A stretch of 64,000 bases of DNA from a virus. The notes beneath the pieces are model-generated. The model had not been told where the DNA came from. It searched no databases and was given only the letters and a program-made list of their open reading frames with translations. Below, in pieces: positions 8,327-59,435 of the stretch. The first letter of the stretch is position 1. Every line of letters starts with the position of its first letter. Both the position numbers and the translations under genes were made by a program. The stretch is taken from the IMG/VR virus record IMGVR_UViG_3300029253_000304, one strand, 5' to 3'.

Positions 8327-8737
8327 ATGAATATGAAAAACAGCTTGCAGAAACGCACCCCGGTGCAGAGCCTCCAGATGGCTGTAGGTACTGCTTGTGC
8401 AATGGGTACTGCTACCATGCTGAGCACGGTTATGGCTTATGCAGATGTTAGCGAAGCTATTAACAAAGTGTTCGACGTAGGCAGCCAGGTTAGCAACTCT
8501 ATTGCTAAAGGCTTGACCAACGTCGTTGTTCCTATCGGCATCGCAGTATTCCTGTATATGCTGGTGCGTATGCTGCTGGCCAGTGACCCGAAAGACGTTC
8601 AGACTTATAAGAAACGTCTTATTGTGGTTGCCATCATCGTCGTGGCTGCTGTTGCAGTGCCCGGCCTGATGAAGGTTGCTAATGAACTCGGTGGCCAGAT
8701 TAACGGCGAGCTCGGCGGCACTAACATTGGCGTCTAA
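8327..8737 (+). CDS. VirB2/TrbC-like T4SS pilin-type protein (signal peptide plus two hydrophobic helices)
   Basis: 136 aa; N-terminal signal-like region; two long hydrophobic helices; first gene of the T4SS cluster; RBS GGAAGGAGG. Confidence 0.5.
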   Translation: MNMKNSLQKRTPVQSLQMAVGTACAMGTATMLSTVMAYADVSEAINKVFDVGSQVSNSIAKGLTNVVVPIGIAVFLYMLVRMLLASDPKDVQTYKKRLIVVAIIVVAAVAVPGLMKVANELGGQINGELGGTNIGV

Positions 8738-8867
8738 TATTCGCTTTGCGGCCAAAAGGCTCGTCCGAGTAATCGGGCGGGCCTTTTTTTATGGAAAGAA
8801 GGTGAGCAACATTAACTCTCTTATAAAATGCAGACCTGCAAACGGGAAGAAAACGGTCAAGCGTTCC

Positions 8868-11800: not shown

Positions 11801-14800
11801 CGCCACGACAACTGAAACCGCCACTGCTCCGAATGCTGCTAATACCACAAACGGCACGACAATCAATGCCAATGGCGCTGATAATACGGCTGTTGGTGGT
11901 ACGGCACCTCGCGCTTCTGGCGCAAACAACGTGAATGTGGTTAATCCCGATGCCGTTGGCAGCAGTTCCGGCTCCACTAAACCTACATCTACACCTGTGG
12001 GCGCACCTACCGCGAATGGTACGGCTGACAGCAAACCGATTAACGCTGCGAATGCAAACACGACTGTAACGGGAGCATCTGCACCTGGCAACGCATCTAG
12101 CGCAAGCACGAATGCACCGCAAGGTAAGTCTGGTGATGGTACACCTACCGATGCAACTGTCAAGGGTTCTGCAACGCCTCTGACCCACGAGGGTAATGCG
12201 CCTATCGACGGTAGTGGTACTGCTGCAAATAAGGGCAATGGCCCCGCTCCCACGCCCGAAGCTGTACCTACACCCAAAGCTGGTACAGCAGAAGGAAAGG
12301 TCGCTGGCCCCGCACCTACTCCCACGCTTGAAACCACGCCCGCTGGCAAGAACGGCGTTGCTCCTGAACAGGGAATTGGCCCTGCTCCTGCTGCTGGCAA
12401 TGGAACTGTACCTGCACCCACGCCCGAAACTGCACCTACAGCGAAAGGCCAGAGTAATGCTCCGTCTGCAAATGTCAATGGCGCTGGTGAAGGAAATACC
12501 GCTCCTACTGGCACTGCCGGTACTACGGCGGCAGAGGAAACTGCGCCTACACCCAGCAATGCTGGTACATTGCCCACCGAGCCTGCCGGTTCTGGCAGCG
12601 ATGCTACTGTCGCTCCTGGCGCTCAGGAACAGAATGTGTCCACAAAATCTGCTCCGAGTTCTGAATCTCAGGGCAATAGCGAAATCTATACTGGTGGTAA
12701 TGGCGTAGATGGAGAAGGCAATACGGTTGTTATTTCTTCTCCCGCTCAGGGCAGCAATGCAACTCAGGCTAAAGATACAACTCCTTCTGAGCACGTTGAA
12801 ACGGAAACCTTTGCTGATAGCAGTGCGACTTCCACCGTTACTCAATCTGCAAGTGAAGACAGCATCACCGATAGCAACGCAGGTCAAACCGAGACTGTCG
12901 TTGGTGGTGGCTCCGTTGGACCTGCAACGCAGTCCGCTACCGACAAGACCGTTACCGAAGAAGGTCCTGCACCCACAACTGCACCGGCAAGCCCCAACAA
13001 CAGCGATTCCGCAGCAAACGATTCTACCGCTTCTGTCGAGTCTCCCGCTGGCAATGCTCCCGGTGAAGAAGTTGCTGGTCCTGCAAAACAGGCTACAAGC
13101 CATGGCTCTGCCGACGCTGAATACACTGGTTCGGAAACACCTACCGGTAACGGTGCTATCAATGAAGGCTCTAGCTCTGTTGGCTCCGAAGTTCAGCTTG
13201 TGGATGACAGTTCCGATACAGTTCAGACCAATGCGCCTGCGCAAACCGAGAACGCAGCTGGGGCTGCTGCCAATGACAGTGCAACGGGTGACGCTTCTGC
13301 TGATTACGCTAAACCTCCGGCTGATGCTGGCAATGCTTCTGGCAACGGTGCTGTTACTGAGAACTCTGGCTCTGCTGATTCCGAAACTCAGTTCACGGAT
13401 GACAGCTCCGCTACGGTTCAAGCCAATGCTCCTACAAGTCATGCTGACGATGTATCTGGTGGCGGTTCTGCCGATTACGTTGAGCCTCCTGCTAACGCTG
13501 AGAACATTTCTGACGGCGGTGCTGCCCCCGTTGTACAGCATACAGACAGTGAACCGGTTGGCAATGAATCCGATGATTCGGATGCACCTTCTGGTTACGT
13601 CGGTGGTACTACGGATGTGGATGCTGGCTCTGCTGACTCTGAGGCTTCGCCCATGGATAGCAATTCTACTACAGTGGAAACTCAGGCACCTGCAAGTCGC
13701 GCTGATAGAACGGTCGATACCAATGATGAAACGGCTGGCGAAGCTGGTTTCGACTATGCTGAACCTCCTGCTGACGCTGGCGGCAATGGCGGTGGCGGCA
13801 ATTACAGCTCTGACGAAGAGACTGCACCTGCTACCCAAGGCGCAAAGGCTCCTGCCGATGAGGGTGATTCTGATATCGGTGAACCTCCTGCAAAGGGAGA
13901 AAGCTCTTCCGATGTTGGTGGTGCTGCTGGTCGTACGACATCCTCCGCTGATGATAGTGACGATTCCGACGACAGCGATGCCGGTTCCGGTTCGTTCGGC
14001 GGCAGCAACGGCAGCTCTCACGACGAGAATCCCGGCTCAGGTGCTTCCGGCAGTGGTGGTGATTCCAACGGCGGCGCTGCTGCTTCCGCAGTACAGTATC
14101 AGAGTGGCGGCGATAATTCTCCCGACGTTGGCGATTCGTTCACCGATAACGAAGGTGCTACCGCAAGCGCAACTGCTGCACCTGAAACTCAAGGCAATGA
14201 CGCAGTGAGTCTCGCAAATGCGGGCTCCGGCAATGAAAGCACTATTGGTCAGGCTGCTCCTACAAAGGCTTCCGCCAGTACGGATACAAATACTTCCAAA
14301 CGGGAAGAGAAGGCCGCACAGAACGATAGTCAAAATAGCTTCGATGGGAATGCAGACGGCTCCGATTACAGTAATAGCACCGCAGTAAAGGATAGCACGC
14401 CGGTTCATGAGCAGAGTGTGGAAAAGCCTCCTGTGGATGGCACGCAGTTCTATGCTGATACATCTCGTGGTAATTCCTTTGCCACATCTGGTAAATCCAG
14501 TACTGAACCCAGTGCATCCAGCGCTGAATACAGCGCTTCCAGTGGTCCTGAAATCCGGCCCTTGAGCCATGTGTCCATCAAGGCATTCAATGATACGAAT
14601 GGTTTTGTTGAGAGCGATGGCATTGGCCGTATTCAGGTCACTCGCGTCAGCGTAGACCCCGATACGGGTGTTACACAGTGGCGCATCATGCAAAAGCTCG
14701 ACGCCGATGGCAACGTTCCTGAGACTCCGGATGTGATGAACATTGAACGGAGTGCCAAGTACAACAAGCAGACCCGCCGGTACGAACCCGAAACGTTTGA

Positions 14801-15089
14801 AGGCATTGCCCGCCAGCTTGGCAAGGTGGATGACTACGAAAGCGTTGGGCCCGATACAGATGAGTCTTACAAACGGCGTAATCGTAACTCCAGTCAGGAT
14901 AGAACCCAATCTGCTGCTCGTTCTGATTCCCAACCTCAGCAGAAAAACGCTTATGAAGGAAAATCGTTCCGTGAACGCAACTCCCGAAATGAGCGCAATG
15001 AGCGGAACAACAGGTTCCAGCAGATGATGCAAGGGAATAAGAACCGCAGCAACGGTTCGAAAAACAAAAAGGATAAGCCGTCCAAGTAA
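8868..15089 (+). CDS. VirB6/TrbL-like polytopic T4SS membrane protein fused to a ~1,700 aa low-complexity (A/G/T/S/N/D/E/P-rich) C-terminal tail
   Basis: N-terminal ~400 aa has at least six hydrophobic helices in a VirB6-like arrangement; remainder is a compositionally biased, repeat-containing region (GPAPTPE repeats; ADY[AV][KE]PPA[DN]A ~60 aa repeats); start placed at ATG 8868 (ORF open from 8676, overlapping the pilin gene). Confidence 0.6.
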   Translation: MLAVILAFATTGCIALAAMSDLVSNFLSMVVMVIARIILQLCDLIMNPLLEITQMTTEEVAEYIPGFAMSGDGVGGYFAKAIMVIATTIAGALIAVRIISYLLEIADGARTESVAKLIWNAVFGMVLTLTGSHFLQLMFDEIISPLTKALSEGVSGGGLGDFSFEKAGMSIIDLTESGDTTETIIAWMGGFVLAQAAALVVSVVLLFLIWWNLVKLVLECAERYIICVFTILLSPLAFATATNERTKDTAINWMQMFWSQCVLLILNIWVVGIARTALDIGLVGASIDSVVKWGLITYAYLKIAQKLDDLLAKAGFRITSTTGLDPMSEAIGAFSVLKTGAHDILSLAGGVAGRGRAAFEALSSFIGGADNSPPIATNPVTPAGPGGAPSGSSSDFNKYGKVSFGDKEKADRFVRSTNAERSDIYKNPGETFNSNSNRQAMANALDELGFDGGKVSQGTVEDLAPDNAIKGAVNGKVTYRDENGKITGVSGFRYSSDESGTTATKTSDLAISPDGQSAILTTDKGKFRLENTGRTAANGSQEWTATRMTDGKGRNLGDVIPDTKNSTSFSVPAGQLNKYGADGAAAIAARSAMEGKNLDYLTRTTDSALNKHDQEQAAAVARDAKQAEAQKQFDTAKENYAGRFQMSNEQRAAEMRDPDSAVDYNSPESLAAMQDTLANADPALAEQFANGAKVTGVDMAMGRDDMPDGALTVTVGDGNTTDTYMVSNPKSSLTDEEAAQVIASGQLPNETAQNAENADGVAGGPNNASAAENGTDAAKTEAAMPDEDGNIAYNSLAGDDNEQEVTGEEVGDTVGMTSEAFEAMHTPMTWMDEPEADESEAGAPPTMWEYFAAMFSGRYSRNNSAQPTYVHVVNPDGVNYKSGAAAPNAANAANGTTTNTNGTGKAAAGSGAPTDKGAPTPQNATASATGATGSVNTAQNGNTTDATSTTMGGAVSRFFGGGNTQAVHNPDVSGKDSNATTTETATAPNAANTTNGTTINANGADNTAVGGTAPRASGANNVNVVNPDAVGSSSGSTKPTSTPVGAPTANGTADSKPINAANANTTVTGASAPGNASSASTNAPQGKSGDGTPTDATVKGSATPLTHEGNAPIDGSGTAANKGNGPAPTPEAVPTPKAGTAEGKVAGPAPTPTLETTPAGKNGVAPEQGIGPAPAAGNGTVPAPTPETAPTAKGQSNAPSANVNGAGEGNTAPTGTAGTTAAEETAPTPSNAGTLPTEPAGSGSDATVAPGAQEQNVSTKSAPSSESQGNSEIYTGGNGVDGEGNTVVISSPAQGSNATQAKDTTPSEHVETETFADSSATSTVTQSASEDSITDSNAGQTETVVGGGSVGPATQSATDKTVTEEGPAPTTAPASPNNSDSAANDSTASVESPAGNAPGEEVAGPAKQATSHGSADAEYTGSETPTGNGAINEGSSSVGSEVQLVDDSSDTVQTNAPAQTENAAGAAANDSATGDASADYAKPPADAGNASGNGAVTENSGSADSETQFTDDSSATVQANAPTSHADDVSGGGSADYVEPPANAENISDGGAAPVVQHTDSEPVGNESDDSDAPSGYVGGTTDVDAGSADSEASPMDSNSTTVETQAPASRADRTVDTNDETAGEAGFDYAEPPADAGGNGGGGNYSSDEETAPATQGAKAPADEGDSDIGEPPAKGESSSDVGGAAGRTTSSADDSDDSDDSDAGSGSFGGSNGSSHDENPGSGASGSGGDSNGGAAASAVQYQSGGDNSPDVGDSFTDNEGATASATAAPETQGNDAVSLANAGSGNESTIGQAAPTKASASTDTNTSKREEKAAQNDSQNSFDGNADGSDYSNSTAVKDSTPVHEQSVEKPPVDGTQFYADTSRGNSFATSGKSSTEPSASSAEYSASSGPEIRPLSHVSIKAFNDTNGFVESDGIGRIQVTRVSVDPDTGVTQWRIMQKLDADGNVPETPDVMNIERSAKYNKQTRRYEPETFEGIARQLGKVDDYESVGPDTDESYKRRNRNSSQDRTQSAARSDSQPQQKNAYEGKSFRERNSRNERNERNNRFQQMMQGNKNRSNGSKNKKDKPSK

Positions 15090-39500: not shown

Positions 39501-40286
39501 TTTCACTGAATTCCGATTCAACATTATTTGGCGTGGCTCAGCTTGGCCCGGTAGCACGATACCATGGCGGCCAAACACAATGATTCTCCAGAACGGAATT
39601 CTCGACATTCGGTGCGAATCGTATATAATCTAAATAATAAAACAGTATAGGAATATAGCTAAGCCGCCAAGCGAGTGAAATCGTTTGGTGGCTTTTCTTT
39701 TTGCTACGGAAAAGTAGATATTGTACTTGTCATGAGCTTGTTGCATACTTGCTAAGCACTTGCTACGCTTCACCTCGAAGCAAGTTCATTTTTTTTGCGC
39801 GAAAGAATATCGGATAAGTGACGCTTCCTACTCGTATGACCGAAAGAAAACATGCAAAGACTCTACCATTCTGGTAGGGCTTTTTTGCTGCCCAAAAAGT
39901 TGGAAAAATGTCGCAAGCGAGCCGCTGAAACCTCGGAATTTTGTCGCAGCCTTTCCGAATATGAGATGTATCTCACAAAAGCGAAATGCGCTGCTTCGTA
40001 TCTGTGGTGAGACAATCGGAACAGGCGAATAGCAAAATCTCAGCTGCCGCAAATGCTGTCAAGTTCAAATCACAACTCCCAAAAGTTTCGTTTGGGAAAG
40101 CCTGCATTAAAAGTTTCGTTCTGGAAAATGCAGAGGGGAAAGGAAAATGCCGAAGCATATATGCACTGATTTTCTTCTTGCTATTTGTGCAATCCGCTCA
40201 AATTGGCGATAAATATTCCCAAAATAAATAAGTCAAAGTGCTTTTGGTGTATAATGGCTCTGACAAACAGAAAAAAGGAGAACACT

Positions 40287-41369
40287 ATGAAAAAGGTTGT
40301 ATCATTAGCACTTTCGACTTTGCTCGTCCTCTCGTTGGCTGCCTGCGGCAAGGCGAATAGTTCCGCTGCAACAGCCGCAAGTGAATCCAAGTCAAGTGCT
40401 TCGTCAAATAGCACTTCCAATAGCACGCAAGATTACAGCCCTGACGGGATTAAAGTAGGAGAGACATATACTACAGAAGACGGCAAAACATATGAAAGGG
40501 TGTGGAACGGCACAGGCAGCGATTTACCTACGCCGTCCCCCGAACCAAAAATTACATACGATAATGATTTCCAGGCACAGACACTTGTTGATAATGAAGA
40601 ATGCATCATTATCTTGCAGAGCGTTGGTTACGATGATGATTACGGCTATTATTGGAAGCTTTATTTCAAGAATAAGACATCAGATAAAAAACTCGGTTAC
40701 TCGTTTGATGACTGCACATTGAATGGCGTGGGTGCGAGCCTTTGGCTTACGAGTGTTGAACCTGGTCAAGAGGAAACGGAGATTCATCATTGGGAAAGTT
40801 CCGGGCTTAAAATTTATAACATCAATCCGCAGGATATCAATACGGTAAGTTTTTATCTCGATGTCTATAACGAATTAGATTATGATGTTATCCCACGGCA
40901 TGACTTTGTTGATGACGATTTTGTGGTTTATCCAAAAGGGGAAGAAAACGCAACCGAGCCAAAGCATGAAACCCAACCCACAGACCTCGTACTGGCCGAC
41001 AATGACGCTTGCACTCTGATGATTTGTGGATTTGACCCCGATGGCCTGCACGGTTATACGACCAAAGCTTACATAGAAAACAAGACGGATAAAGAAATCA
41101 TGTTTGCCTTTAGAAGCGGAGGCTCTATAAACGGTTTTGAGTGCTTCCCTGAAACAGATACAATGGGAATTGATGCGCACACTAATGCCTATGTAGACAT
41201 CTACTATTACGATTATTTAGATACTTATGAGGCCAACGGTAAAGACCCCACCTCTATCACCGAAATGGTGATGCCAATCGTTATAAACAATTCCAGCACT
41301 CGGGACATCTATGTAGATGAGACTTTCACTATTAACCCTCAGACAAATTCCGTGACAACACCGGAATAA
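40287..41369 (+). CDS. lipoprotein with internally duplicated ~120 aa domain (paralogue A)
   Basis: MKKVVSLALSTLLVLSLAAC lipobox; two copies of D-N-D-x-C-x-[IM]...GYDD..YGYY / G-F-D-x-D-x-x-x-G-Y-T segments; extended -10 TGTATAAT upstream. Confidence 0.6.
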   Translation: MKKVVSLALSTLLVLSLAACGKANSSAATAASESKSSASSNSTSNSTQDYSPDGIKVGETYTTEDGKTYERVWNGTGSDLPTPSPEPKITYDNDFQAQTLVDNEECIIILQSVGYDDDYGYYWKLYFKNKTSDKKLGYSFDDCTLNGVGASLWLTSVEPGQEETEIHHWESSGLKIYNINPQDINTVSFYLDVYNELDYDVIPRHDFVDDDFVVYPKGEENATEPKHETQPTDLVLADNDACTLMICGFDPDGLHGYTTKAYIENKTDKEIMFAFRSGGSINGFECFPETDTMGIDAHTNAYVDIYYYDYLDTYEANGKDPTSITEMVMPIVINNSSTRDIYVDETFTINPQTNSVTTPE

Positions 41370-41727
41370 TTTGACGCCCTCCTGCGATTAAAATTATTAA
41401 CTTTCCCGGGCTTCGTTTGCAACTTTGTAAATAAAAGTTTCGTTCTGGAAAACACGGTGGAAAATTGACACCTCCCACGATTGAAATCGTGGGATTCCTG
41501 GGCGGCGCGGCAAGGTTCATCGCCAAATCGTGTCTGAAACAGCGAGTTATGCGGTTTCCCATCATCCGCTACGGGTGTAGCGCATGACGAGCATCCAGCC
41601 AAAATGGTTGACCAACATACTTGTCTGCATTCCCAGTTCTTTTAAGTGCATCCTCCGAAGGGAGTTTCACCTCTTGCGAGGCAGCTCTTTAACGAGGGAG
41701 TGTCGAGCCCCCGGGAAACTATTATTT

Positions 41728-43464
41728 TTAGAACCCTACGCTTGCAGGAAGGTAGCTTTTATCCTTCTGCAAGCGCTTTATTGTATTTTCGTGCATCACT
41801 AAGAATGCAGGAAAAGCTGAGTTAAGAGCTTTTGTATTGTATTCCAAAGATTCAGTATCTATATATTCAAGCAGAAAAGCGGAATACAGGTCACGCTGAA
41901 CTATATCGCCGCTGCGGAGACGAGCCATTCGTTCGGAAAGCCTCTTCTTGGTGTAGCTTTCATCTGTATGGTCAAATTGCGAGGCTTTTGTTTCAAAGGT
42001 GCTGACTTTGATAACACTGCCGTCATAACGATTGGCTTTTTTGTTCAGGATGGAAATAAACATTGCGGGGGCGCAACGGCTCAACGATTTGCCAAACCGT
42101 TTTTTTGTATGTGCTCTACCGGTTTTTGGATTGACTTTCGTTTCCTTGCTGCGCTTTTGCAAGGCTTTGTAGTTCATATCTTCAACCACGAACTCGTCGC
42201 CATGCTGCAGCAATTCGTTGGCAAGGATGTTGTGCTCCATCTTGCGGATATCCGCCAATCGGCGGTTTAAGTCACGCAGTTTTGCTTTCAAACGGAAATA
42301 GCGCTTGCTGTACTTCCAGTCACGCCTTTGTTTGTGACCATGCTTGCGCTTTAACCGTTTTATTGTACCATCAGAATTAAAATATTGCGGGTTTGTAGCG
42401 CGGCGTGAACGGTCCATTGCTCGCTGTGTACGAGCGATTTCGTTCACGAGGCTTTTGGCTTGCGCTCTTGCTGATGGCGCAAGAACTCTCAAATCGCAGA
42501 TATCTTTACCACTAATGGCAAGCGTTTGCGTGCCGATATCAAGACCTATGCGCCCTTGATTGACAGGATGCTTCATCACGCCGTTGCTATCGCATTTGAC
42601 GGGAGGATACCCTTCCAAAACAAGTTGAGCATAATACTTCCACTTATTGCGAACCCACTTACGAGTAATGCGGCAGTATTTTACTCCACATTTGAGAGCT
42701 TCCTGCTGATATTTTCCTGTCTGAGTTTTAGGATTACGCAACACAACAGGAAATTCATGCTTTCCGTACACAATGCGCAGGTTGCCTTTTCCGATAGTGG
42801 GTTTTATTTTTGCGATAGCGGCAGCAATTTCAGCTTCCATTTGTGGTTTTACCTCATCAGGAAGAACGACTTTCTTATCGTCTTTAGGGTCAGGCCGCCC
42901 GTACATATCATCGTATCGCTTCTCAACGGCTTTTTGCGCCTTGCGCTTAGCCGACTCTATATTGCTTGTAGTGAGGTTTGCCGGGCGAAGCACGATACCG
43001 GTAGCATTATTCTTACCGGAAATCGAAGCTACATCTTCCAGCTTTTTATAATGGACAGCCTTCCCTTTGCTGAAGAAAAAGCCTTCCCAAGCCGTCCAGA
43101 CGGCGGATGCAACATTCTGTGCTACATGAGAATTGATGGCAAAGTGCTTCGCGTACGGCACAACCAACTTATGAAGAGCATCTTCAGAAAAACGATATTC
43201 TTTAAGCATCTTTTCGCGTTGCTTAAAGAGTGTTTTTTGCTCATCGCTGTCGGGAGTTGCTTTTGCAATAGCTGCCATCAACTCACGATACTTGCGCGTC
43301 TTGCGCAATTGATGCCACATTTTTGTAGTCACACTCACAAGCTGATTGTAGATGACACCACACTTCTTGAACTCCTTATACAGATAGTCTTGCTCGTTGA
43401 GACTTATATCAAGAGGCAATGTCAATACAAATGATGGCGTGCTATTCTTGCTCCCAAAAGCCAT
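41728..43464 (-). CDS. tnpB: long TnpB-like RuvC nuclease (578 aa) without a canonical zinc finger
   Basis: RuvC-I GLDIGTQ, RuvC-II VVEDMN, RuvC-III QRDLYSAFLL; no Cys residues where CxxC...CxxC is normally found. Confidence 0.7.
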   Translation of the reverse strand: MAFGSKNSTPSFVLTLPLDISLNEQDYLYKEFKKCGVIYNQLVSVTTKMWHQLRKTRKYRELMAAIAKATPDSDEQKTLFKQREKMLKEYRFSEDALHKLVVPYAKHFAINSHVAQNVASAVWTAWEGFFFSKGKAVHYKKLEDVASISGKNNATGIVLRPANLTTSNIESAKRKAQKAVEKRYDDMYGRPDPKDDKKVVLPDEVKPQMEAEIAAAIAKIKPTIGKGNLRIVYGKHEFPVVLRNPKTQTGKYQQEALKCGVKYCRITRKWVRNKWKYYAQLVLEGYPPVKCDSNGVMKHPVNQGRIGLDIGTQTLAISGKDICDLRVLAPSARAQAKSLVNEIARTQRAMDRSRRATNPQYFNSDGTIKRLKRKHGHKQRRDWKYSKRYFRLKAKLRDLNRRLADIRKMEHNILANELLQHGDEFVVEDMNYKALQKRSKETKVNPKTGRAHTKKRFGKSLSRCAPAMFISILNKKANRYDGSVIKVSTFETKASQFDHTDESYTKKRLSERMARLRSGDIVQRDLYSAFLLEYIDTESLEYNTKALNSAFPAFLVMHENTIKRLQKDKSYLPASVGF

Positions 43465-43468
43465 AAAG

Positions 43469-43870
43469 TTACCCTCCTCTCTTTTTTTGCTGTTCTACAT
43501 AGTGTTGAATCGTAGCGGTAGACACATCTCCGGCAGTGCTTACAAAATAGCTGCGTGTCCACATTTGCATAACCGTGTCAGGAAAAAACTCTTGCTTGAG
43601 TATCCTGCCGGTGGTTCCTTTAATAATTTTCATGATTTCTGCAGCACTTAATGTAGGCGGAGCATTCACGAAAAGATGACAATGGTCTATATGACATTCC
43701 ATTGCCAGTATCACAATGTCGTTTTGCTCACAAATTTGAGTTACAAGTTCCTTGAAACGAGCTTCAAACCCATCCACCAGAAATAATTTTCTCCGATAGC
43801 GTGGGCAAAACACAAAGTGATAATTTATCATAGAAACGGTTGCTTTTGTGCGCCTATAATCTTTTTTCAT
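43469..43870 (-). CDS. tnpA: IS200/IS605 TnpA (HUH Y1 transposase)
   Basis: HUH motif HIDHCHLFV; catalytic Tyr region TRSYFVSTAG; 133 aa; 4 nt from tnpB. Confidence 0.85.
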   Translation of the reverse strand: MKKDYRRTKATVSMINYHFVFCPRYRRKLFLVDGFEARFKELVTQICEQNDIVILAMECHIDHCHLFVNAPPTLSAAEIMKIIKGTTGRILKQEFFPDTVMQMWTRSYFVSTAGDVSTATIQHYVEQQKKRGG

Positions 43871-44077
43871 GTATCTATTATATCATATTTTAGATGCCAT
43901 GTTGTTGCAAACACATGAATATATACAAAGTTGTCTTGAAATTTCTCCCAAAGTAACTCTAAGGTGCGGCCTTTCATCCCACGATTGAAATCGTGGGCTT
44001 TCCCAGCCTTCATTTTGTAAAATGTCGAAGCGCTTTTGATGTATAATAGCCTTATACAAAGAAAAAAGGAGAAAATC

Positions 44078-45100
44078 ATGAAAAAGGTTGTATCATTAGC
44101 ACTTTCGGCTTTGCTTGCCCTTTCCCTGGCCGCCTGTAGCAGCTCTAACACTACCAGTACTGCTGCCAGCAGTGCAGCTACATCTGATGCTGCATCCTCC
44201 GAGAAAAGCACCAGCGACTCTTCAACGAGTACTGCAAGTAGTGCTGCCGATAATGCAACGGCTGAACCCGACATCCAGTTCGATGAGAGTTTCCAGCCAC
44301 AGACGATTGCCGACAACGATACCTGTACCATCATCTTGCAGAACGTGGGTTATGATGACAGCTATGGCTACTACTGGACCGTTGATTTCCAAAATAAAAC
44401 GGATGACAAAACTCTTTGCGCTATCACAAGCAGCTCGTCCTTGAATGGAATCCCGGCAGATACCAGTTGGTTCCCGGAAATTGGACCAGGAGTGAAAACC
44501 ACCGAGGTCGTTTCGTGGGATAAAGCAGGACTGGAAATCTATGGAGTGAAACCGCAAGACATCGATACCGTCAAACTTCACATCGATGTCTATGATGAAG
44601 CAGAATGGGATGTGTCGAATCGTGATGACCCTGTCGATGATGACTTTGTGATTTATCCGAAAGGTGAAGAGAAAGCGACAGAACCAAAACACGAGATTCA
44701 GCCCACGGATATTGTGCTGTTCGACAATAATGCCTGCAGCATGGTCGTTTGCGGATTTTATTCTGATAGTTTCATGGGCTATACGGCAAAAGCCTACTAC
44801 GAAAACAAAACCAACGACCGTATCGATGTCATTCTGGACAAAGGCTCTATCAATGGTTTTGAGTGTACCCCGGAAGGGACAACGCTGCTGGAACCACATT
44901 CTAACGCCTATATTGATATTCGTTGGCAGGAATATGCCGAAACCTACGCAGAAAATGGCAATGACCCAACATCCATCACAGAAATTGTAATGCCAGTTTT
45001 TGTGAGAAAAGACACAGGGAGCAATACGGTATACATTGACGCCACTTATTCCATTGACCCACAAGCAAGAACAGCAACGCCGATAGTGAATCCCCAATGA
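44078..45100 (+). CDS. lipoprotein with internally duplicated domain (paralogue B of 40287..41369)
   Basis: MKKVVSLALSALLALSLAAC lipobox; collinear similarity to paralogue A including the promoter/RBS region. Confidence 0.6.
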   Translation: MKKVVSLALSALLALSLAACSSSNTTSTAASSAATSDAASSEKSTSDSSTSTASSAADNATAEPDIQFDESFQPQTIADNDTCTIILQNVGYDDSYGYYWTVDFQNKTDDKTLCAITSSSSLNGIPADTSWFPEIGPGVKTTEVVSWDKAGLEIYGVKPQDIDTVKLHIDVYDEAEWDVSNRDDPVDDDFVIYPKGEEKATEPKHEIQPTDIVLFDNNACSMVVCGFYSDSFMGYTAKAYYENKTNDRIDVILDKGSINGFECTPEGTTLLEPHSNAYIDIRWQEYAETYAENGNDPTSITEIVMPVFVRKDTGSNTVYIDATYSIDPQARTATPIVNPQ

Positions 45101-45272
45101 TAGCCGCATAATTTTCCAAAGCCAAAAACTTCTGGAATAGCAGCAAAACTTTTCTGAGTTCAGAAAACTTTTGGTACTTTGGGGAAAAGTTTTCTGGAAT
45201 GGGAAAACTCTCCGACTTTTTTGGAATAAAAAAATAAAAGCGCTCACCATTTTTCGGTGGGCGCTTTCGTGT

Positions 45273-46802
45273 TTATTCTTCAGTTTTCTTTTTCAGCCAC
45301 TGCCTTCTAACGAACGGTGTTACATAGGTTTCATCACTCTTCAGCTCATAGCCATAGCTTTCAGCTATCATGGTAGCACGTTCACTCGCTTTCTGCCCGG
45401 CAGGCAGGCGACGAATAAAACCATTGATGTTCTTGGACGAAGCATCATACTTGGACTTGTCGAACACTCGCAGCGGCTCATCGTCTTCATTGTCTTTCTT
45501 GCGATAATCGCGGGGCTTGCCGCCAATCATCAGGCAGCGAATGCCAAATGGGGCATCCGCGTGTGTCACAAACGAAGACCGGAACGACGCATCAGTGGGC
45601 AGGACATCCGGCAAATCACAGGCGAGAGAAGTGTACAGCCAGAGAATCAGATTCGTGACGCTGTCAACCAGCTCTGGAAATTGAGCTCGGTCAGTCAAAA
45701 TATAAAACCACTCGGTGCTTGTGTTATAGTATCCGGCCAGGTCACCGAACTTGGTTACGATTTTATACAGACACACAATCTCGTTGTCGCGGCAAGTCTC
45801 TTTCAGCTTAATTTCCTGTATCAGCTGGCAGGCATCAAACTGAAACAATGCACCGTTGGCGGAAAGAGTTCTGCGGCGATGGTGCAGCGTATCTTTCAGA
45901 AACTCTGTCGTATATTTTGGTGAGATGGGCTTTGGCCACCAGGACCACATGTACGGCGTATTCGCAGTCAACGGTTTATCCGGAAGCATATCCACGGTAT
46001 ACTCGTTCACATAGGTGGCCATCGAAAGAACCGTGTTTGTATACAAATGCGAGAGCAAAGCGAGGTCGTTGATGCTATCGAAATCTGCTACATTCTCATA
46101 GCCATAACGCTTGTAGTACGAAAAGACCATATCCAGGCGTCTATCTTCAGAAATCTGAAAATCGCATTTATCGTATGGCCGATTATTGAAAAGGGCTTCA
46201 CTATAATAGACTGGAACATCCGCAAGGGGATAGGGGTCCCGAATGATGATAGGCTCATTCTCAGTCGAAATGCCAACAATGTTGTTCACAATGTCAAATT
46301 CCTGAGGCTTGAGGTATTCGCTTCCCTGCATCAGCATATCGATTACCGCGTACAGGACAGAATCATTACGTTCCATAACTCCGTCAATGGATAATCCTGA
46401 ATGAACACATTCCTGCGCATAAGCAATAGCCTTGAAATACAGAGCATAGTCCTTATTCTTCTTGATGGGCTTTGTGAGCCCCTGCAAAAACTGATGATAG
46501 CCTTTAATGAACTTGTCGGGGTTTGCCATGGCAAGCTCTACCTGAGAGCTGACGGCCTCAATGATGGGTTTGCACTCCTCAGCTTCACGGACCAGGTGAA
46601 AGAGGAAAGTAGATGCTTTCCCAAAATCCATGTCATGCAATGTCGTCGCAACCTGGCAAGCGCTGGACAAGGTTCTTCTCTGAAATACCCAGATGGACTC
46701 GCCTTTGCTCCGATACTTCTTATCCCATACCGGTGCGTATTTATCGACTAAGGCATTACCGAAATCTTCCTGCGCTGCCAAAACACCATTTTCGTTCTGC
46801 AC
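45273..46802 (-). CDS. large uncharacterised protein (509 aa), second gene of a two-gene operon with the HD-domain protein
   Basis: GTG start 10 nt after the HD gene stop, with GGAGGA RBS; no recognisable motifs. Confidence 0.55.
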   Translation of the reverse strand: MQNENGVLAAQEDFGNALVDKYAPVWDKKYRSKGESIWVFQRRTLSSACQVATTLHDMDFGKASTFLFHLVREAEECKPIIEAVSSQVELAMANPDKFIKGYHQFLQGLTKPIKKNKDYALYFKAIAYAQECVHSGLSIDGVMERNDSVLYAVIDMLMQGSEYLKPQEFDIVNNIVGISTENEPIIIRDPYPLADVPVYYSEALFNNRPYDKCDFQISEDRRLDMVFSYYKRYGYENVADFDSINDLALLSHLYTNTVLSMATYVNEYTVDMLPDKPLTANTPYMWSWWPKPISPKYTTEFLKDTLHHRRRTLSANGALFQFDACQLIQEIKLKETCRDNEIVCLYKIVTKFGDLAGYYNTSTEWFYILTDRAQFPELVDSVTNLILWLYTSLACDLPDVLPTDASFRSSFVTHADAPFGIRCLMIGGKPRDYRKKDNEDDEPLRVFDKSKYDASSKNINGFIRRLPAGQKASERATMIAESYGYELKSDETYVTPFVRRQWLKKKTEE

Positions 46803-46812
46803 AGTATCCTCC

Positions 46813-48273
46813 TCATAGTTTCAGCTGCCCTACACAGCTCTGCGCAGTGGGCAGTAGTTTGTGGGCCATCTCGTTGCGGAAATACTTAGGGTCTACGGCT
46901 CGCATCCCGAACCGCACACGGTCTAAAGCATCTGCGTCTTTCAGAATCGTATACAGCAGCCACACCCGTTCTTTGTCCCGGATATTGGATACTTTGAGGT
47001 CTGCAAGAGCCTTGCGGTCATCCAAGCAATGGTACTCGATGAGGAAAGCAGTTGCCGAATTGCAGTCGGGGGCTGTGTCATAATAAATGTCCCTAGACTT
47101 TGCTCCGTGACTGTCATCGACATCATCGTTTGTCCGCCCAATATCATGATAAAGAATCGCATCACATAGCTGGTGGGATTCTTTTTTTGTTAAGGCAATG
47201 CCCTGAACCTGAACCAAAAGCAGCGCATCAAAGAGAACTCGCAGCGTATGCTCGGCGTTGTGCTCCTCATCATTAGCCCGGCCATAAGCATCATACAGAG
47301 TGGAAATGCGGCTCCGGTAGCGCTGGTAGAGAGGGTAGAACTCCTGAATTTCATCTGTCAGAGCGTTAATGCCGTATAGTGTATCGACCTTTCTATCTTT
47401 TACGGCAGCCGGTGGGACAAGGACCTCTTTTTCTTCATCATTCGGAAAATACTCGATGATGTCACATTTGCTGACATGGGCAGTGATGATTCTGCTGTTC
47501 TCGAGACTCGGGATGCGGCAGGCGAAGAAACAGGCTGCCTTGTAGCTTGTGGTCCAGGAGAAAGATTTCTCGTATGGAGTTGACTTACTCCCTTCCCCGC
47601 GATAGATGGTCACAACATCCGGCAGGCTGGATAGCCTCTTTATAGTATCCTGCTTTTGCTTCTGAGATTTTCCGGCAAAGACTTTTTGGAGGTCATCCTC
47701 CTTGAGAGCAGAGAAACCAAAGTCGCTGGTACGATAAAGGTCCAGAAAGAGTGAGTACAGGTCCTCGTCAGGGTTAGACAACTCAATGTACCTGGAAAGA
47801 ACAGACACACGAAGGCTGTCTTCCAGGGAGAAAAGGTAACTGCGGATAAAGGGGGCATTTCCCGTTGAAATGTTTTCAGCTGCGCCTAAAACTCTCTGCT
47901 GGAATTTCTCATCCGATTCGCTGTTCACAGCCAGACGCTTGTCCCCGTAAATGTTCAGAGAGAGAACAATGGGAACGGTCGTGCTATCGAGCTCGCAATA
48001 ATAAAGAGGAGCAAGCATATTGTGCGCAGCATAAATCTTGTCGACGGGGAGTCTCGGATACTTTTTAGCGAATTCAGTGGCCGTTATACCGATACTGTAG
48101 CCTTCTTTGTAGTACCGTTCAATGTCAGCACTTGTCTGCACTGCAGTGAGGGGTAACATCGTCTCGAGACTTGCTTGGTTGATGCTTACAAGAATATCCC
48201 CGACCGTCATTGTTTTTCGGACTTCCAACTTTTCACGGGTTGCCCCGTTACTCAGTATGGATTTCTGCTTCAT
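46813..48273 (-). CDS. HD-domain phosphohydrolase with ~330 aa uncharacterised N-terminal region
   Basis: C-terminal H...HD...H...D pattern (HTLRVLFDALLL...LYHDIGRTND...HGAKS...LKDADALDRVRFG). Confidence 0.65.
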   Translation of the reverse strand: MKQKSILSNGATREKLEVRKTMTVGDILVSINQASLETMLPLTAVQTSADIERYYKEGYSIGITATEFAKKYPRLPVDKIYAAHNMLAPLYYCELDSTTVPIVLSLNIYGDKRLAVNSESDEKFQQRVLGAAENISTGNAPFIRSYLFSLEDSLRVSVLSRYIELSNPDEDLYSLFLDLYRTSDFGFSALKEDDLQKVFAGKSQKQKQDTIKRLSSLPDVVTIYRGEGSKSTPYEKSFSWTTSYKAACFFACRIPSLENSRIITAHVSKCDIIEYFPNDEEKEVLVPPAAVKDRKVDTLYGINALTDEIQEFYPLYQRYRSRISTLYDAYGRANDEEHNAEHTLRVLFDALLLVQVQGIALTKKESHQLCDAILYHDIGRTNDDVDDSHGAKSRDIYYDTAPDCNSATAFLIEYHCLDDRKALADLKVSNIRDKERVWLLYTILKDADALDRVRFGMRAVDPKYFRNEMAHKLLPTAQSCVGQLKL

Positions 48274-49640
48274 AGAGCGAGCTTACCGCAAGCCGCAGCT
48301 CTTGATAGAGGCTCGCTCTCCACAGACTTTAAGATTCGGTCGTCCTGACCGTACTGTTCGCCTGTGGTTATGAGGCGGCTGGCGTAGCCAGCATGTCCAT
48401 TCCTTTCTTTAGAATGTTTTCTGCTGCATTTTTATCCCTATCGTGTGATGTGTTACATTTCGGACAGACCCAATGCCGAACATTGAGGTTTTTTACCTCT
48501 TTGTTTTGGTAGCCGCAGCAAGAGCAGGTCTGGCTGCTTGGATAGAAGGTTGGTATTTTTACAACTACTCTTCCTGCCCAACTGGATTTATAATCAAGTT
48601 GTCGGAAGAACTCTCCCCAAGAAACATCGGAAATACTTTTAGCAAGGTTATGATTGCGAACCATACCATTTACATTGAGGTCTTCTACACAGATGATTTG
48701 GTTTTCTTTCACCAGTGTGGACGACAACTTATGTAGGGTATCTTTTCGTTTGTTGGTTATTTTTTCGTGGCAGCGAGCCACCTTGATGCGCTGCTTTTCC
48801 CAGTTGGCAGAGCCTTTCTTCTTGCGTGACAGTTTTTTCTGCTCACGCTTTAGTTTAGCTTCCGCTTTCTGTAGATACTTATGGTTTGGATGTTCATTTC
48901 CATTGCTGTCAACAGCAAAAGATTTGATGCCAACATCCAAGCCGATAGCGACATTCTTAACAGGAAGCGGTGCTACTTCTACTTCGCAAAGAATGCTTAC
49001 ATAGTATTTTCCGCTTGCTGAACGACGGATTGTTGCCTTGCAAATACGACCTTCAATGTTGCGGCTTTTGCGATAGCGCACCTTTCCAAGTGTAGGAAGC
49101 TGAATGTACTTATCGTCAACTTTAATGCTTTTTGCTTTAGTAGTTGTATAACTTTCTTCTCCTCTTTTTCGTTTGAATTGAGGGAATCCTTTACCGTCTT
49201 TGAAAAAGCCTTTATAGGCATTATCTAACTGACGACAGCTATATTTGAGTGCTTGGCTATCCGCTTCAGCAAGCCGAGGAAGATAGGTCTTCATCTGAGG
49301 AAGTAGATTTTGCGTATCAATATAGCTCATGCTTTCGCCGCGCCGCCTATAGGCTTTTATTCGCCTATCTAATATAGAGTTATATATAAAGCGGCAGCAG
49401 CCGAGCGTTTTATTGATTTTTACTTCCTGCTCTTCTGTAGGCTCTAGCCGAAATTTATAGCCTTTATGTACTTTCAAGGTGATTCACCTCCTTTATGGAT
49501 TTTTGTACTTGTGAATTGGTCAAACCCCCGGAAAAAGTTGAATAGCCTGTTTTTCTCCTCCCACAATTCTTTCTAACATAATTATATCATATTTTACAGA
49601 TGGACGGGCCAAAATCGCAACTTTGTTCATGAATACTTAA
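48270..49640 (-). mobile_element. IS1341-like tnpB-only element, approximate bounds; its right end abuts the HD-domain gene start
   Basis: tnpB with a 9 bp-stem hairpin (AGAGCGAGC...GCTCGCTCT) in the 94 bp between the tnpB stop and the HD gene start. Confidence 0.35.
48368..49477 (-). CDS. tnpB: TnpB (IS200/IS605-family OrfB), IS1341-type solo copy
   Basis: [12 protein letters not shown]-terminus; RuvC blocks; CSCCG...CPKCN zinc finger; [10 protein letters not shown]; RBS AAGGAGGTG. Confidence 0.85.
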
Positions 49641-49838
49641 ACTTTATGCACGAGATTTATTGTTGCCCTAATATATAAAACTAGAGCCCCGTCATCTTGG
49701 ATGGGGCTCTTGAGTTGTAACTGGAGGTGTATCTCATTTTGTGCCAGGGGTATTGTATGGTAGTTTTCGAAAATGAGTGCAAAAAAACAAACACCAGAAG
49801 TCGAACTCAAAAATATCTTAGTCTTGGCAAGTTTACCC

Positions 49839-49866
49839 TTGCGCCGCTGTGCGAACTTCGTACAAT
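49839..49866 (+). promoter_or_regulatory. conserved-spacer promoter (a): TTGCGC-cgcTGTGCGAACTTCG-TACAAT
   Basis: member of the seven-copy TTGCnn-16-xAxAAT family with TGTGCGAAYTG in the spacer. Confidence 0.5.
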
Positions 49867-49969
49867 AAGAATTGTACAAGAGAAACGGCAAGAGACATTT
49901 GTAGTGATTGTAGTTGGTCGCCACGAATCGATGCCGTGTCTGCTTGCGCATAATTACCTCTTTTCGAAG

Positions 49970-50004
49970 CCCACAGGCCATTCTCTCACCTGTGGGTTTT
50001 GTTT
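49970..50004 (+). terminator. intrinsic terminator ~105 nt downstream of promoter (a)
   Basis: stem CCCACAGG...CCTGTGGG followed by TTTTGTTT. Confidence 0.5.
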
Positions 50005-50015
50005 ATTGCGAAATC

Positions 50016-50043
50016 GTGCGAATTGCAGACAATTAAAGACAGA
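50016..50043 (+). promoter_or_regulatory. conserved-spacer promoter (b): TTGCGA-aatCGTGCGAATTGCA-GACAAT
   Basis: same family; lies ~60 nt upstream of omega-RNA-like copy 1. Confidence 0.5.
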
Positions 50044-50094
50044 GCGATTGTGAGATGGGGCGATACCGATGCAGTAGGGATGAGAATCTTAGCA

Positions 50095-50410
50095 GCTAAA
50101 AGAGTCAACAACCCCGCCTAAACCGGTTCGCCGGTTATAGACGGGGCTTGCGGGGCAACCTGTAAGCCCAGTTGATTAGCCTAAGCCCATTGCTCCGGCA
50201 GTGGGGAAAACTACGTTGTGTACTAATAATATAGGCACCTTATCCATGCTCCACAAGTGGTGAGCTCTGCAGGCGTTTCGTTAAACATCTCCGAGGGGAG
50301 GAGAAGTGCGAGCGTCATGTCGAAAGGCTAAAACAGTGCATAACATTGGCGAAGTGGACCACAGGACGCAAGTCCTGACTTATAGTTTTATTACTATTTT
50401 ACGAATGGAG
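50095..50410 (+). ncRNA. IscB-type omega-RNA (HEARO-like) scaffold, copy 1, with no IscB gene downstream (flotillin gene instead)
   Basis: ~85% identical in blocks to 63180-63545; a compensatory pair change inside a GNRA-capped hairpin (CAGGAC-GCAA-GTCCTG here, CAGGGC-GCAA-GCCCTG in copy 2); shared 3' end carrying an RBS. Confidence 0.5.
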
Positions 50411-57954: not shown

Positions 57955-58551
57955 ATGAGCTATGAACCCATTATCACACCGGGCAGGAATTTCTTTCTTG
58001 TCTCGACGGAGTACAAAGAGAGCTGCTCTGCCTGGTGCCGCAAGCAAATTAGAGCGACGCTGAGGACCTGTCAGGGACGAGTCATCATCATTGATGCAAC
58101 GGGCGAGTACGCGGACTTGGCGCTTGAACATGACAGATTGATTCGAGAGAAAATCCCGTCCATCATTTATCGGTATAAGCTGGTGGACGGGAAACCGTAT
58201 ATTGCTCATGTCATTGAAGTTGATACGGAAGCAAATGAAGCACCGCACCTGATTGTATACGATATCAGCCGGACCATAATCATCAGCTGGAAGGTCGGCG
58301 TGGAGGCAATTGATAAAATCCTGCAATCCTATGCCGTGATGCAGGACAGTGAAATTGCGTGGCTGTATGTTCCGCTGGACTTATATACCAATGTCAAGCC
58401 TGAAACCGAATCCTGGAACATTCTGGAACGAACCATCAAGGGCAATGAAGGAAAGCTCATGACGGTGCTGACAACACGAAAATTCAACATCGGCATGGTT
58501 CAGCGCTGTTTGCATATGACAAAAAATAAACTTCTGGAGGATAGCAAATGA
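57955..58551 (+). CDS. hypothetical protein (198 aa)
   Basis: RBS AGAGGA; first gene after promoter (e). Confidence 0.45.
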   Translation: MSYEPIITPGRNFFLVSTEYKESCSAWCRKQIRATLRTCQGRVIIIDATGEYADLALEHDRLIREKIPSIIYRYKLVDGKPYIAHVIEVDTEANEAPHLIVYDISRTIIISWKVGVEAIDKILQSYAVMQDSEIAWLYVPLDLYTNVKPETESWNILERTIKGNEGKLMTVLTTRKFNIGMVQRCLHMTKNKLLEDSK

Positions 58552-59435
58552 CCAATGAACAGCTGAGAATTGCATTGACGGCGAATGCCGTTACCAAACA
58601 GACCCGTAACCATTTTGGGTTCAGTGACCCGTGTGGGAAGACTCTGGAAGAGTACAACAAATCTTCAATGCTTTGCTGTGTGACGGCAGCGCAGAAAATG
58701 AACACGCCGGGTTTCGAGCGTGTCCTTGCTGCACAGATTTTCCCCTGCTTCACCATCGGCTGCTGGAACCAGACGAAGACGGTCTATGATTTTGACTACG
58801 AGTTCCAGAAAATTCTTATGGATACGGATGACATGGCGATTCATCAGGATATCCTGCAGCGGCTTCCGATTCGTGATTTCTTTATCCCGGTGTATGACAG
58901 CTACGACTACAACGGTATGTTCGTGCATGTGGAATTCGAAGAGAAAGAGAAGACCACTGCTTTCGGCATCGTTCTTGTCGGCCCGGCCAAAGGCAGCCAT
59001 GATGATTTCACGTTCCTGACTCTGCCTGCCTGGGCCAAAGAAAACCAGAGCTTGACGGAAGCAACTCGGAGCACGAAAGAATACCTGGAAAAGGCAGCCG
59101 GGCAGCGGCAGGTAAATGGTATCAGCGTACCGGCTGTGATGGAAGCAGTTCCTTCGGTCTTTGACGGCGGCACGCCTTATGTTCGCCTGGCAATCCTGTG
59201 TGCCTACTATCTTGCCAGTAAGAACCCTGATGTCCGCTTGGAAACTTCCAAAAAGCGTGACCGCCCGGTATTCGTGTTTCAGGGAAAGGCACAGCGAATC
59301 AACGTCAAGGCATATACCGTTGGTGAGAATGCGGCCAAAGAATACAAGAAGAACGGGGAAGGCAAAACTCCCCGCTGGCGGCATTACTGGTGCGGCAATG
59401 GCCGGGAACGTCGGGAATGCAAGTTTATTTACTGA
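58548..59435 (+). CDS. hypothetical protein (295 aa)
   Basis: ATGA overlap with the upstream gene; RBS GGAGGA; no motifs; the antisense ORF 58665..59552 is rejected. Confidence 0.45.
   Translation: MTNEQLRIALTANAVTKQTRNHFGFSDPCGKTLEEYNKSSMLCCVTAAQKMNTPGFERVLAAQIFPCFTIGCWNQTKTVYDFDYEFQKILMDTDDMAIHQDILQRLPIRDFFIPVYDSYDYNGMFVHVEFEEKEKTTAFGIVLVGPAKGSHDDFTFLTLPAWAKENQSLTEATRSTKEYLEKAAGQRQVNGISVPAVMEAVPSVFDGGTPYVRLAILCAYYLASKNPDVRLETSKKRDRPVFVFQGKAQRINVKAYTVGENAAKEYKKNGEGKTPRWRHYWCGNGRERRECKFIY

Follow-up and report, generated by a model that had tools for sequence, protein, structure and literature searches.

A putative ADP-ribosyltransferase–HD phosphohydrolase protein on predicted conjugative elements of gut Clostridia, and its dispensable neighbour gene

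We investigated a two-gene locus in the IMG/VR virus record IMGVR_UViG_3300029253_000304, of which we analysed a whole stretch of 64,000 nucleotides (nt), henceforth referred to as the window. Both genes lie on the minus strand: gene A, whose product ends in an HD-superfamily phosphohydrolase domain, and gene B, which encodes a protein of 509 amino acids (aa). An initial annotation had proposed that they form a two-gene anti-phage system wedged between insertion sequences (IS). Our analysis favours a different reading, to which we give roughly even credence, namely that gene A encodes a NAD+-dependent modifying enzyme contained in a single polypeptide and acting as an effector of the mobile element that carries it, while gene B is a passenger and the IS copies are incidental. 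Gene A has a three-domain architecture with two conserved centres, the second of them in a domain with the HD fold; relatives of this HD domain keep company with enzymes of NAD and ADP-ribose metabolism, and the gene itself resides on mobile DNA. Gene A is still likely to have a conflict-related role, as an NAD+/ADP-ribose enzyme contained in one protein.

Architecture and conservation of gene A

The open reading frames (ORFs) as first listed were 46813..48273 (-), of 486 aa from its first ATG, and 45273..46802 (-). We found that almost every homologue of gene A has a length of about 465 aa and starts at Met22 of the window protein, and that alignment with the empty sites of IS-free relatives (L099 and L101-L104) places an IS end directly at the ATG at 48210. 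Because these empty sites put the IS at 48219..49547, the first 21 codons, from the ATG at 48273 onwards, belong to the IS; gene A is therefore 465 aa long, and the length of 486 aa given in the initial annotation is wrong. The gene and its domains are as follows.

46813..48210, minus strand: gene A, 465 aa plus stop, true start ATG at 48210
47926..48210, minus strand: gene A residues 1-95, small alpha/beta N-terminal domain, from the secondary structure of the model; conserved P20, G37, Y38, Y71 and P80
47356..47925, minus strand: gene A residues 96-285, putative R-S-E ADP-ribosyltransferase (ART) domain, helical lobe plus beta core; Y203-R204-G205, S218-W219 and E260-x-E262
46816..47313, minus strand: gene A residues ~300-465, HD-superfamily phosphohydrolase domain; YHDxGR, HG, YHC..D and KDADALDRVRFG

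In an AlphaFold2 model of gene A (predicted local distance difference test score 90.9) the protein consists of a small N-terminal domain, a helical lobe with a six-stranded core, and a helical HD domain. The family is large and has a fixed architecture. With a profile of residues 96-292 we retrieved representatives of 4262 clusters at 50% identity, 123 of them at E<=1e-30, and the best 150 of these 4262 were nearly all 445-505 aa long. Residue conservation was scored over 121 family members with ~30% identity to the window protein. R204, G205 and A226 were invariant, and conservation of at least 90% was found in the middle domain for Y203, S210, S218, W219, F229, A230, E260 and E262, and in the HD domain for H317, H321, R324, H355, D356, R359, H368, G369, H394, D398, K424, D425, D427, D430, R431 and R433. 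Since very few positions stay fixed at this level of identity, the two catalytic-looking centres are under strong constraint.

Existing annotation says little about this family. The initial annotation had described a large unrecognised N-terminal part, and Pfam, NCBIfam and PADLOC are indeed blank over the first ~300 aa; residues 1-95 had no family match. The middle domain of gene A matched PHROG 4776 (function unknown; E 6e-14), and searches of PADLOC, NCBIfam and PHROGs with both proteins returned only PHROGs of unknown function. NCBI labels the members of the gene A family only 'HD domain-containing protein', and we found no description of this ART-like/HD family or of 'HD-CE' in the literature.

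The middle domain carries the motifs Y-R-G, S-W-[TS] and E-x-E, the last with hydrophobic residues after it, on successive predicted strands that follow a helical lobe. This is the motif order of R-S-E ARTs (strands 1, 2 and 5), here with R204 invariant and with S218 and E260/E262 among the residues conserved in at least 90% of the members. Moreover, genuine ARTs take the same position ahead of the same HD domain in proteins from two other loci (L070 and L081). We used hhalign to compare a 99-sequence profile of the family with five C3-like ARTs (those of L070 and L081, Plx2A 5urp, C3larvin 4tr5 and Lmo0066 8za7). The alignment scored 28.7 (E 3.6e-4) and placed R on R, S on the first S of STS and E-x-E on Q-x-E, while 80 column shuffles scored 11.8+-2.3 (maximum 19.1) and reversed or unrelated profiles no more than 15. 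On the strength of its motifs and the architecture, we judge it somewhat probable that the middle domain is an ART.

Several observations weigh against this assignment. When the YRG strand was left out, the hhalign score dropped to 9.1 against a background of 9.9+-2.2, i.e., the R strand alone supplies the statistical signal. No Pfam ART match was obtained in any of the 99 family members, in ten middle-domain sub-sequences or in five standalone homologues, and the middle-domain profile searched against PDB sequences gave no ART match (spurious maltose-binding-protein matches or nothing). The family thus shares with the C3/VIP2-like R-S-E ARTs (PF03496) a helical lobe before the beta core and the order [IV]YRG, S-x-[ST], [EQ]-x-E with hydrophobic residues after it, but differs from them in its serine motif (S-W-T) and in the gap from R to S, which at 14 residues is shorter than the ~28-45 of canonical ARTs. 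Finally, gene A is at this point a putative enzyme, which may serve in defence, in anti-defence or as a toxin.

The HD domain, its NAD and ADP-ribose company and a possible mechanism

The HD motif set that the initial annotation had recognised at the C-terminus is present in the C-terminal third of gene A, and its residues are invariant or at least 90% conserved across the family. Specifically, gene A carries the metal-binding set H...HD...D of the HD superfamily (PF01966), and its C-terminal domain adopts the helical fold of HD domains and phosphodiesterases (PDEs). The Pfam HD model scored 16.8 bits on the window protein, below its gathering cut-off of 22 bits; of the 99 family members, it matched 67 at E<=0.01 (best 6e-12), and the HD-CE model matched 9. 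A Foldseek search of PDB with the whole gene A model gave weak HD/PDE matches only. In the fold search, the best neighbour of the HD domain was the PDE of the SidE family (12.5), followed by domain III of Ppx/GppA (12.0), the uncharacterised HD hydrolase 2pq7 (11.5) and, further down, HD-GYP proteins and cyclic-nucleotide PDEs. Three points speak against giving the SidE match much weight: its lead over ordinary HD domains is small, the HD profile came nearest to 2pq7 (E 2.6e-5) and HD-GYP enzymes, not SidE, when searched against PDB sequences, and the SidE_PDE model (PF12252) matched 1/99 members at E 0.008 (P0119 at 0.088). By its motifs, the C-terminal domain of gene A is classified as a classical metal-type HD domain, whose resemblance to SidE appears at fold level and by a small margin. 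Neither by family model, nor by best structural neighbours, nor by core-genome conservation does gene A qualify as a RelA-SpoT/(p)ppGpp hydrolase. The initial annotation had presupposed that gene A is not an ordinary core gene of (p)ppGpp or nucleotide metabolism, and this holds, given that the gene is sporadic and found on mobile elements.

To survey the HD subfamily, we scanned 185,579 species-representative genomes for its signature peptides (KDADALDR and YHDIGR); the 80 loci listed are a lower bound. The same HD domain was found directly C-terminal of a canonical ADPrib_exo_Tox domain (with VYRG, STS and QxE) in L070 (1020 aa; Pfam E 4e-17) and L081 (632 aa; Pfam E 1e-22), and a 1500-aa protein in L077 has the same ART sequence before the HD domain, though Pfam reported only the HD. 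It also lies C-terminal of a microbial PARG catalytic domain (PARG_cat_microb) in L022 and N-terminal of Isochorismatase (nicotinamidase-like) domains in L024 and L025. A standalone form of ~190 aa occurs within gene rows of the type Sir2-Sir2-HD-PncB(-PncA), with at least 30 loci among the matches listed, across Bacillota and Bacteroidota (Bacillaceae, Paenibacillus, Clostridia, Bacteroidales and Flavobacteriaceae). An annotated example is on the Paenibacillus plasmid pART37 (HD = WP_149847207.1, annotated only 'HD domain-containing protein'). This standalone protein belongs to the same subfamily as the HD domain of gene A and has the same signature motifs, but it lacks the ART-like and N-terminal domains and sits in a chromosomal or megaplasmid context of NAD salvage. 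Our searches turned up no description of the Sir2-Sir2-HD-PncB(-PncA) row. Because the partners of this HD clade consume NAD+, remove ADP-ribose or recycle nicotinamide, we infer from several independent lines of context that the clade acts on NAD-derived ADP-ribose compounds.

The rows with standalone HD include loci L023, L027, L028, L032, L037, L039, L041, L046, L048, L061, L066, L067 and L167, with the HD ORF near position 10000. The proteins ending in a canonical ART and the same HD are encoded at L070 7646..10708, L077 6146..10648 and L081 90..1985. The one in L070 resembles a toxin of the LXG type, exported by the type VII secretion system (T7SS) of subtype b (T7SSb), with an ART-HD warhead; an EssC/YukB homologue (E 7e-124) and two ORFs of ~90 aa lie directly ahead of it. 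This layout is that of a T7SSb toxin locus, which suggests that the ART-HD module is used there as a T7SS toxin.

The closest mechanistic analogue of gene A would be the transferase–phosphodiesterase pair of the Legionella SidE family (SdeA/SidE/SdeC; also SdeD and DupA/B), in which a mono-ADP-ribosyltransferase (mART) plus a PDE serve phosphoribosyl-ubiquitination. The SidE PDE has a catalytic His-His-Glu triad and works through a His-phosphoribosyl intermediate. To our knowledge, the SidE effectors of Legionella are the sole demonstrated case of such a mART-plus-PDE enzyme. Acting on ADP-ribosylated ubiquitin, the SidE PDE releases AMP and leaves phosphoribose behind (PMC10143409). By analogy, the middle domain of gene A (R204, S218, E260-x-E262) would transfer ADP-ribose from NAD+ onto a macromolecular target, and the HD domain would then cleave the ADP-ribose pyrophosphate, so that AMP is released and a phosphoribosyl mark is left that would resist removal by macrodomains or ARH enzymes. 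Alternatively, the HD step could be the degradation of ADP-ribose products. In either case the enzyme would serve the element as an effector against the host or competitors, be it in host takeover, anti-defence or toxicity.

The two systems differ in several respects. Gene A is arranged as N-terminal domain, ART-like domain and HD, whereas SidE has the order deubiquitinase (DUB), PDE, mART and C-terminal domain; gene A thus lacks the DUB and the C-terminal domain and measures 465 aa rather than ~1500 aa. Its HD domain is of the classical H..HD..D kind, nearest to 2pq7 and HD-GYP and barely matched by the SidE_PDE model, and its ART-like domain goes unrecognised by Pfam. The host differs as well: gene A is carried by an element of a gut Firmicute, i.e., in a bacterial setting with no ubiquitin target. 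A second likeness is to polyvalent or early-injected effectors (e.g., T4 Alt), in that gene A would pair a protein-modifying, ART-like domain with another catalytic domain and is found in conjugation loci and phages. Gene A is small in comparison with polyvalent proteins and has two (putative) catalytic domains. According to Iyer et al. 2017 (PMC5512222), polyvalent proteins occur in conjugation loci and phages, and the new host is the proposed site of their action; their ARTs belong mostly to the H-Y-[ED] Tox-ART-HYD2 clade, and the phrases 'HD domain' and 'HD phosph' were not found in that article (PMC5512222).

If our preferred reading is right, a widespread mobile-element family now annotated only as HD proteins would turn out to be a transferase-plus-phosphodiesterase machine. 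This would open a direct way to find phosphoribosyl modifications in bacteria, account for the ties of one HD subfamily to sirtuins, PARG, nicotinamidase and ARTs, and bring a candidate class of effectors into the arms race between plasmids, phages and hosts of the human gut. A wider proposal, possible but doubtful in our estimation, is that in a very large prokaryotic family ADP-ribosylation and the cleavage of pyrophosphate are coupled within a single polypeptide, with SidE-like phosphoribosyl chemistry on bacterial targets. If true, the thousands of 50%-identity clusters and the T7SS ART-HD toxins would make this chemistry widespread instead of a Legionella oddity, and conjugative elements, phages and secreted toxins would deploy marks beyond the reach of macrodomain and ARH erasers.

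A competing explanation keeps the HD chemistry and dispenses with the transferase: gene A could be an anti-defence protein in which the HD domain breaks down immune signals derived from NAD, or products of ADP-ribose (e.g., cyclic ADP-ribose isomers of the Thoeris type), by hydrolysis, while the R-S-E-like domain only binds the nucleotide or regulates the HD. The links of the HD subfamily to NAD and ADP-ribose enzymes fit such a role, as do the conjugative context and a neighbouring gene resembling the anti-CRISPR AcrVA2 (see below), and the unproven identity of the ART leaves room for it. We nonetheless find it unlikely, given that members at ~30% identity keep the catalytic residues of R-S-E ARTs (R, S and E-x-E) with little or no variation, that bona fide ARTs occur fused to the same HD, and that the N-terminal and middle domains also exist on their own, without the HD.

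Gene B and the two-gene hypothesis

We then considered whether gene B is a partner of gene A. The features concerned are these.

45273..46802, minus strand: gene B, 509 aa, GTG start with GGAGGA before it
45237..45267, minus strand: intrinsic terminator, which closes the bicistron and is common to the convergent lipoprotein gene
44036..45100, plus strand: lipoprotein paralogue, convergent on gene B, a neighbour outside the unit that stays beside gene B in L094

The TGA stop of gene A and the GTG of gene B are 10 nt apart, with GGAGGA within the gap, and the terminator hairpin starts 6 nt past the stop of gene B (12-bp GC-rich stem with 7 GC pairs, then the T-run TATTTTTTTATT on the minus strand). 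Because of the 10-nt gap with its GGAGGA and the terminator directly after gene B, we regard the two genes as one bicistronic unit, in which gene B is probably co-transcribed and translationally coupled with gene A; the two-gene operon with 10-nt spacing to a GTG was to this extent correctly described. The 509-aa protein had also been said to carry no recognisable motifs, and Pfam, NCBIfam and PADLOC find nothing anywhere in it; it likewise gave no fold match and no family match.

The co-occurrence of the two genes was surveyed in 69 IMG/VR loci: 11 close relatives (gene A protein 90-99.6% identical to that of the window), 23 loci of a clade at 58% identity, and 35 more distant ones. Gene B adjoins gene A in 11/11 of the close relatives (gene A >=89% identical) and in 8/23 loci of the 58% clade, where at least 8 loci with full flanks lack it; it is missing from all 35 of the distant loci. 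Two contigs, L115 with gene B and L112 without it, are 96-98% identical on both sides of a clean 1.5-kb gap, while L116 and L001 retain only remnants of gene B (its start, an internal piece and its end), which read as a 75-aa ORF; gene A is intact in all four. The genes also separate in other ways: they are 5.4 kb apart in L007 and lie ~6 kb apart on opposite strands in L011, and gene B is found without gene A in the available flank in L010, L092, L093 and L094, the last of which retains the convergent lipoprotein at 89% identity though gene A is missing. Genes A and B share an element type and sometimes an operon, and neither requires the other. With 43 clusters in 5.8 billion proteins, gene B is a rare, dispensable orphan passenger, not an obligate partner. 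The co-conservation expected of an obligate two-gene operon, or of a toxin–immunity pair, was not found, and it was the lack of such co-conservation that the initial annotation itself had named as counting against its proposal.

These data bear directly on the anti-phage system proposed initially, in which the HD protein would be the effector (a nuclease or phosphohydrolase) and the 509-aa protein its sensor or partner, both being needed. The tight bicistron with its terminator is what one would expect of such a system, adjacency is retained at 59-62% identity in L012 and 8 IMG/VR loci, and genes for McrBC, RloB/AAA_15, NERD and HipA-like proteins lie nearby in relatives (McrBC and RloB/AAA_15, as defence genes near gene A, also sit uneasily with the effector reading that we prefer). 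Against it, neither protein matched a system model of PADLOC-DB 2.0 at E<=1, gene B is deleted or decayed beside an intact gene A within nearly identical flanks, absent from every distant locus and present alone elsewhere, and the gene A family has 4262 representatives against the 43 clusters of gene B, figures that come from different databases, gene B's being the larger. With gene B dispensable and the IS flanks incidental, we consider a two-gene defence system very unlikely.

Equally hard to credit is a toxin–immunity pair, in which gene A would be a toxic ART-HD enzyme and gene B the immunity protein encoded downstream, as in polymorphic toxin loci. The T7SS-linked protein of L070, which ends in a canonical ART plus the same HD and has small ORFs downstream, offers a precedent, and gene B lies directly 3' of gene A at a spacing that suggests translational coupling. 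However, most gene A loci lack gene B, gene B is found without gene A, and at 509 aa it far exceeds the usual size of immunity proteins; in some relatives gene A is intact although only remnants of gene B are left beside it, which is incompatible with a lethal toxin.

Genomic context and flanking insertion sequences

Full-length gene A accounts for ~10 of the 80 loci listed from the species-representative genomes, and its carriers are conjugative elements, IMG/VR contigs and megaplasmids of Bacillus, Paenibacillus and Clostridium. On their own, the N-terminal and middle domains were found beside ssb, sortase and FtsK/SpoIIIE genes on plasmids of Bacillus and Ligilactobacillus, and also in Lysinibacillus and mycobacterial phages. 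Of all explanations the least probable is that gene A is an ordinary enzyme of NAD salvage or ADP-ribose recycling with no conflict role: standalone HDs do occur in Sir2-Sir2-HD-PncB-PncA operons on the chromosomes of many Bacillaceae, but the full-length form is sporadic, is carried by mobile DNA and has T7SS toxins among its related architectures.

The preferred reading of gene A as a mobile-element effector is consistent with its surroundings. The window encodes a VirD4-like coupling protein (CD1115 family according to the closest plasmid annotations), a VirB4/TraG-like ATPase and an M23 peptidase, as well as a RecD2-like helicase, a Y-family polymerase, a YpsA-SLOG protein, metallophosphatases, a flotillin/vWA pair and a Mor-like regulator. 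A window ORF at 58548..59435 (+) is 62% identical to a gene of L001 (2851..3738) annotated as AcrVA2-like (PF26125). Within 8 kb of gene A, such an AcrVA2-like gene is present in 22/23 loci of the 58% clade, where it is the most constant neighbour; in the window, the flotillin/vWA block lies between it and gene A. Related contigs of 140-180 kb come from human-gut samples (L007 from the Hadza; L012 from an HRGM metagenome-assembled genome). A blastn search with the 3-kb region against phage and plasmid collections gave no DNA-level match, and a scan of genome contigs with a single protein gave no related loci, nor did one of the scans of viral contigs. Judging by gene content, gene A is predicted to be accessory cargo of a conjugative element of gut Clostridia that bears a type IV secretion system; defence genes and anti-defence-like genes occur side by side in its neighbourhoods.

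Two side observations concern the element as a whole. Contigs L096-L164 (40-390 kb) are filed as viral genomes in IMG/VR, and the window matches L096 with 98% identity over 8 kb, yet carries VirD4/VirB4-like genes; these contigs may be misfiled conjugative plasmids or integrative and conjugative elements, or phage-plasmids. In addition, a 2137-aa ORF inside the conjugation block (window 8676..15089, +) has no Pfam match and trivial phage matches only; it may encode a very large surface protein or one of the polyvalent type.

The mobile sequences next to the two genes are the following.

48219..49547, minus strand: solo-tnpB element of the IS200/IS605 type; ORF 48368..49477, Pfam OrfB_IS605, Cas12f1-like_TNB and HTH
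41453..44016, minus strand: tnpA-bearing element of the IS200/IS605 type; Y1 tnpA 43469..43870 plus a 578-aa ORF 41728..43464, between two lipoprotein paralogues
49548..50101, minus strand: native upstream region of gene A, which directly adjoins the gene in IS-free relatives and is now cut off by the IS

Both flanks are identified as IS200/IS605 elements by Pfam matches (Y1_Tnp and TnpB) and by precise empty sites. In a comparison of the region with the eleven close relatives, the sequence 48219..49547 is missing from L099 and L101-L104, where GGGAGGAGAAAAACA joins ATGACGGTCGGG directly; in the window, the 8 bp GAAAAACA are found at both junctions of this element. The insertion parted the native Shine-Dalgarno sequence (GGGAGGAG-AAAAACA) from the ATG of gene A at 48210. 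The initial annotation had this solo tnpB end abutting the operon start within 94 bp, which is the correct distance from the tnpB stop (48368) to the ATG at 48273, but 'abuts' understates an insertion that split Shine-Dalgarno and start codon. An extended -10 (TGATATAAT) lies ~35 nt ahead of the original ATG of gene A, in a promoter-like site at 49620-49591, and the native upstream region is now 1.33 kb distant from the gene; upstream of gene A we found no excess structure indicative of a single-stranded-DNA promoter hairpin (fold z -0.5). Because the IS separates gene A from its own predicted promoter, expression would have to come via read-through from tnpB or from the IS end.

The tnpA-bearing element was inserted after the target TTAC and is missing from L097 and L099-L102. 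It had been called a complete tnpA-tnpB element, of which the Y1 tnpA stands (Pfam Y1_Tnp, E 2e-33), whereas its 'tnpB' of 578 aa has no Pfam match and is weakly TnpB-like. Both IS copies are missing in relatives that are ~92-97% identical over the region, and because of these empty sites in close relatives we regard both as recent, polymorphic and incidental. Y1 tnpA and TnpB copies thus do flank the pair, but the arrangement 'wedged between IS elements' is a strain-level accident without a functional link to it, and we reject a composite transposon carrying the two genes, as the two IS are different, were inserted independently and are missing in close relatives. More generally, a single window can give the false impression of a 'two-gene island' through IS insertions and a neighbour gene in decay.

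Some further observations relate to these insertions. The two lipoprotein paralogues at 40185..41369 and 44036..45100 (+) are adjacent to each other in IS-free relatives. The 578-aa ORF (41728..43464) has no PDB match either; pairwise comparison with TnpB gave E 0.011 with only the RuvC D and E motifs aligned, and it has no zinc-finger cysteines, so that it may represent a divergent TnpB lineage. Three TnpB-like copies lie within 12 kb in the window, and in three different lineages the gene found next to gene A on its 5' side is an RNA-guided nuclease gene of the IS200/IS605 type, as an IscB-like RRXRR+HNH gene (L012 6144..7439) or as TnpB (window 48368..49477; L001 5903..7006). Lastly, a full-length HEARO RNA (RF02033, the IscB-associated omega RNA; 91 bits, E 6e-18) was found at window 50104..50364 (+). 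It lies on a 304-bp segment (50102..50405) with no IscB ORF beside it, which is a presence/absence indel missing in L098, L099, L101-L103 and L133 and may be an orphan mobile omega-RNA unit.

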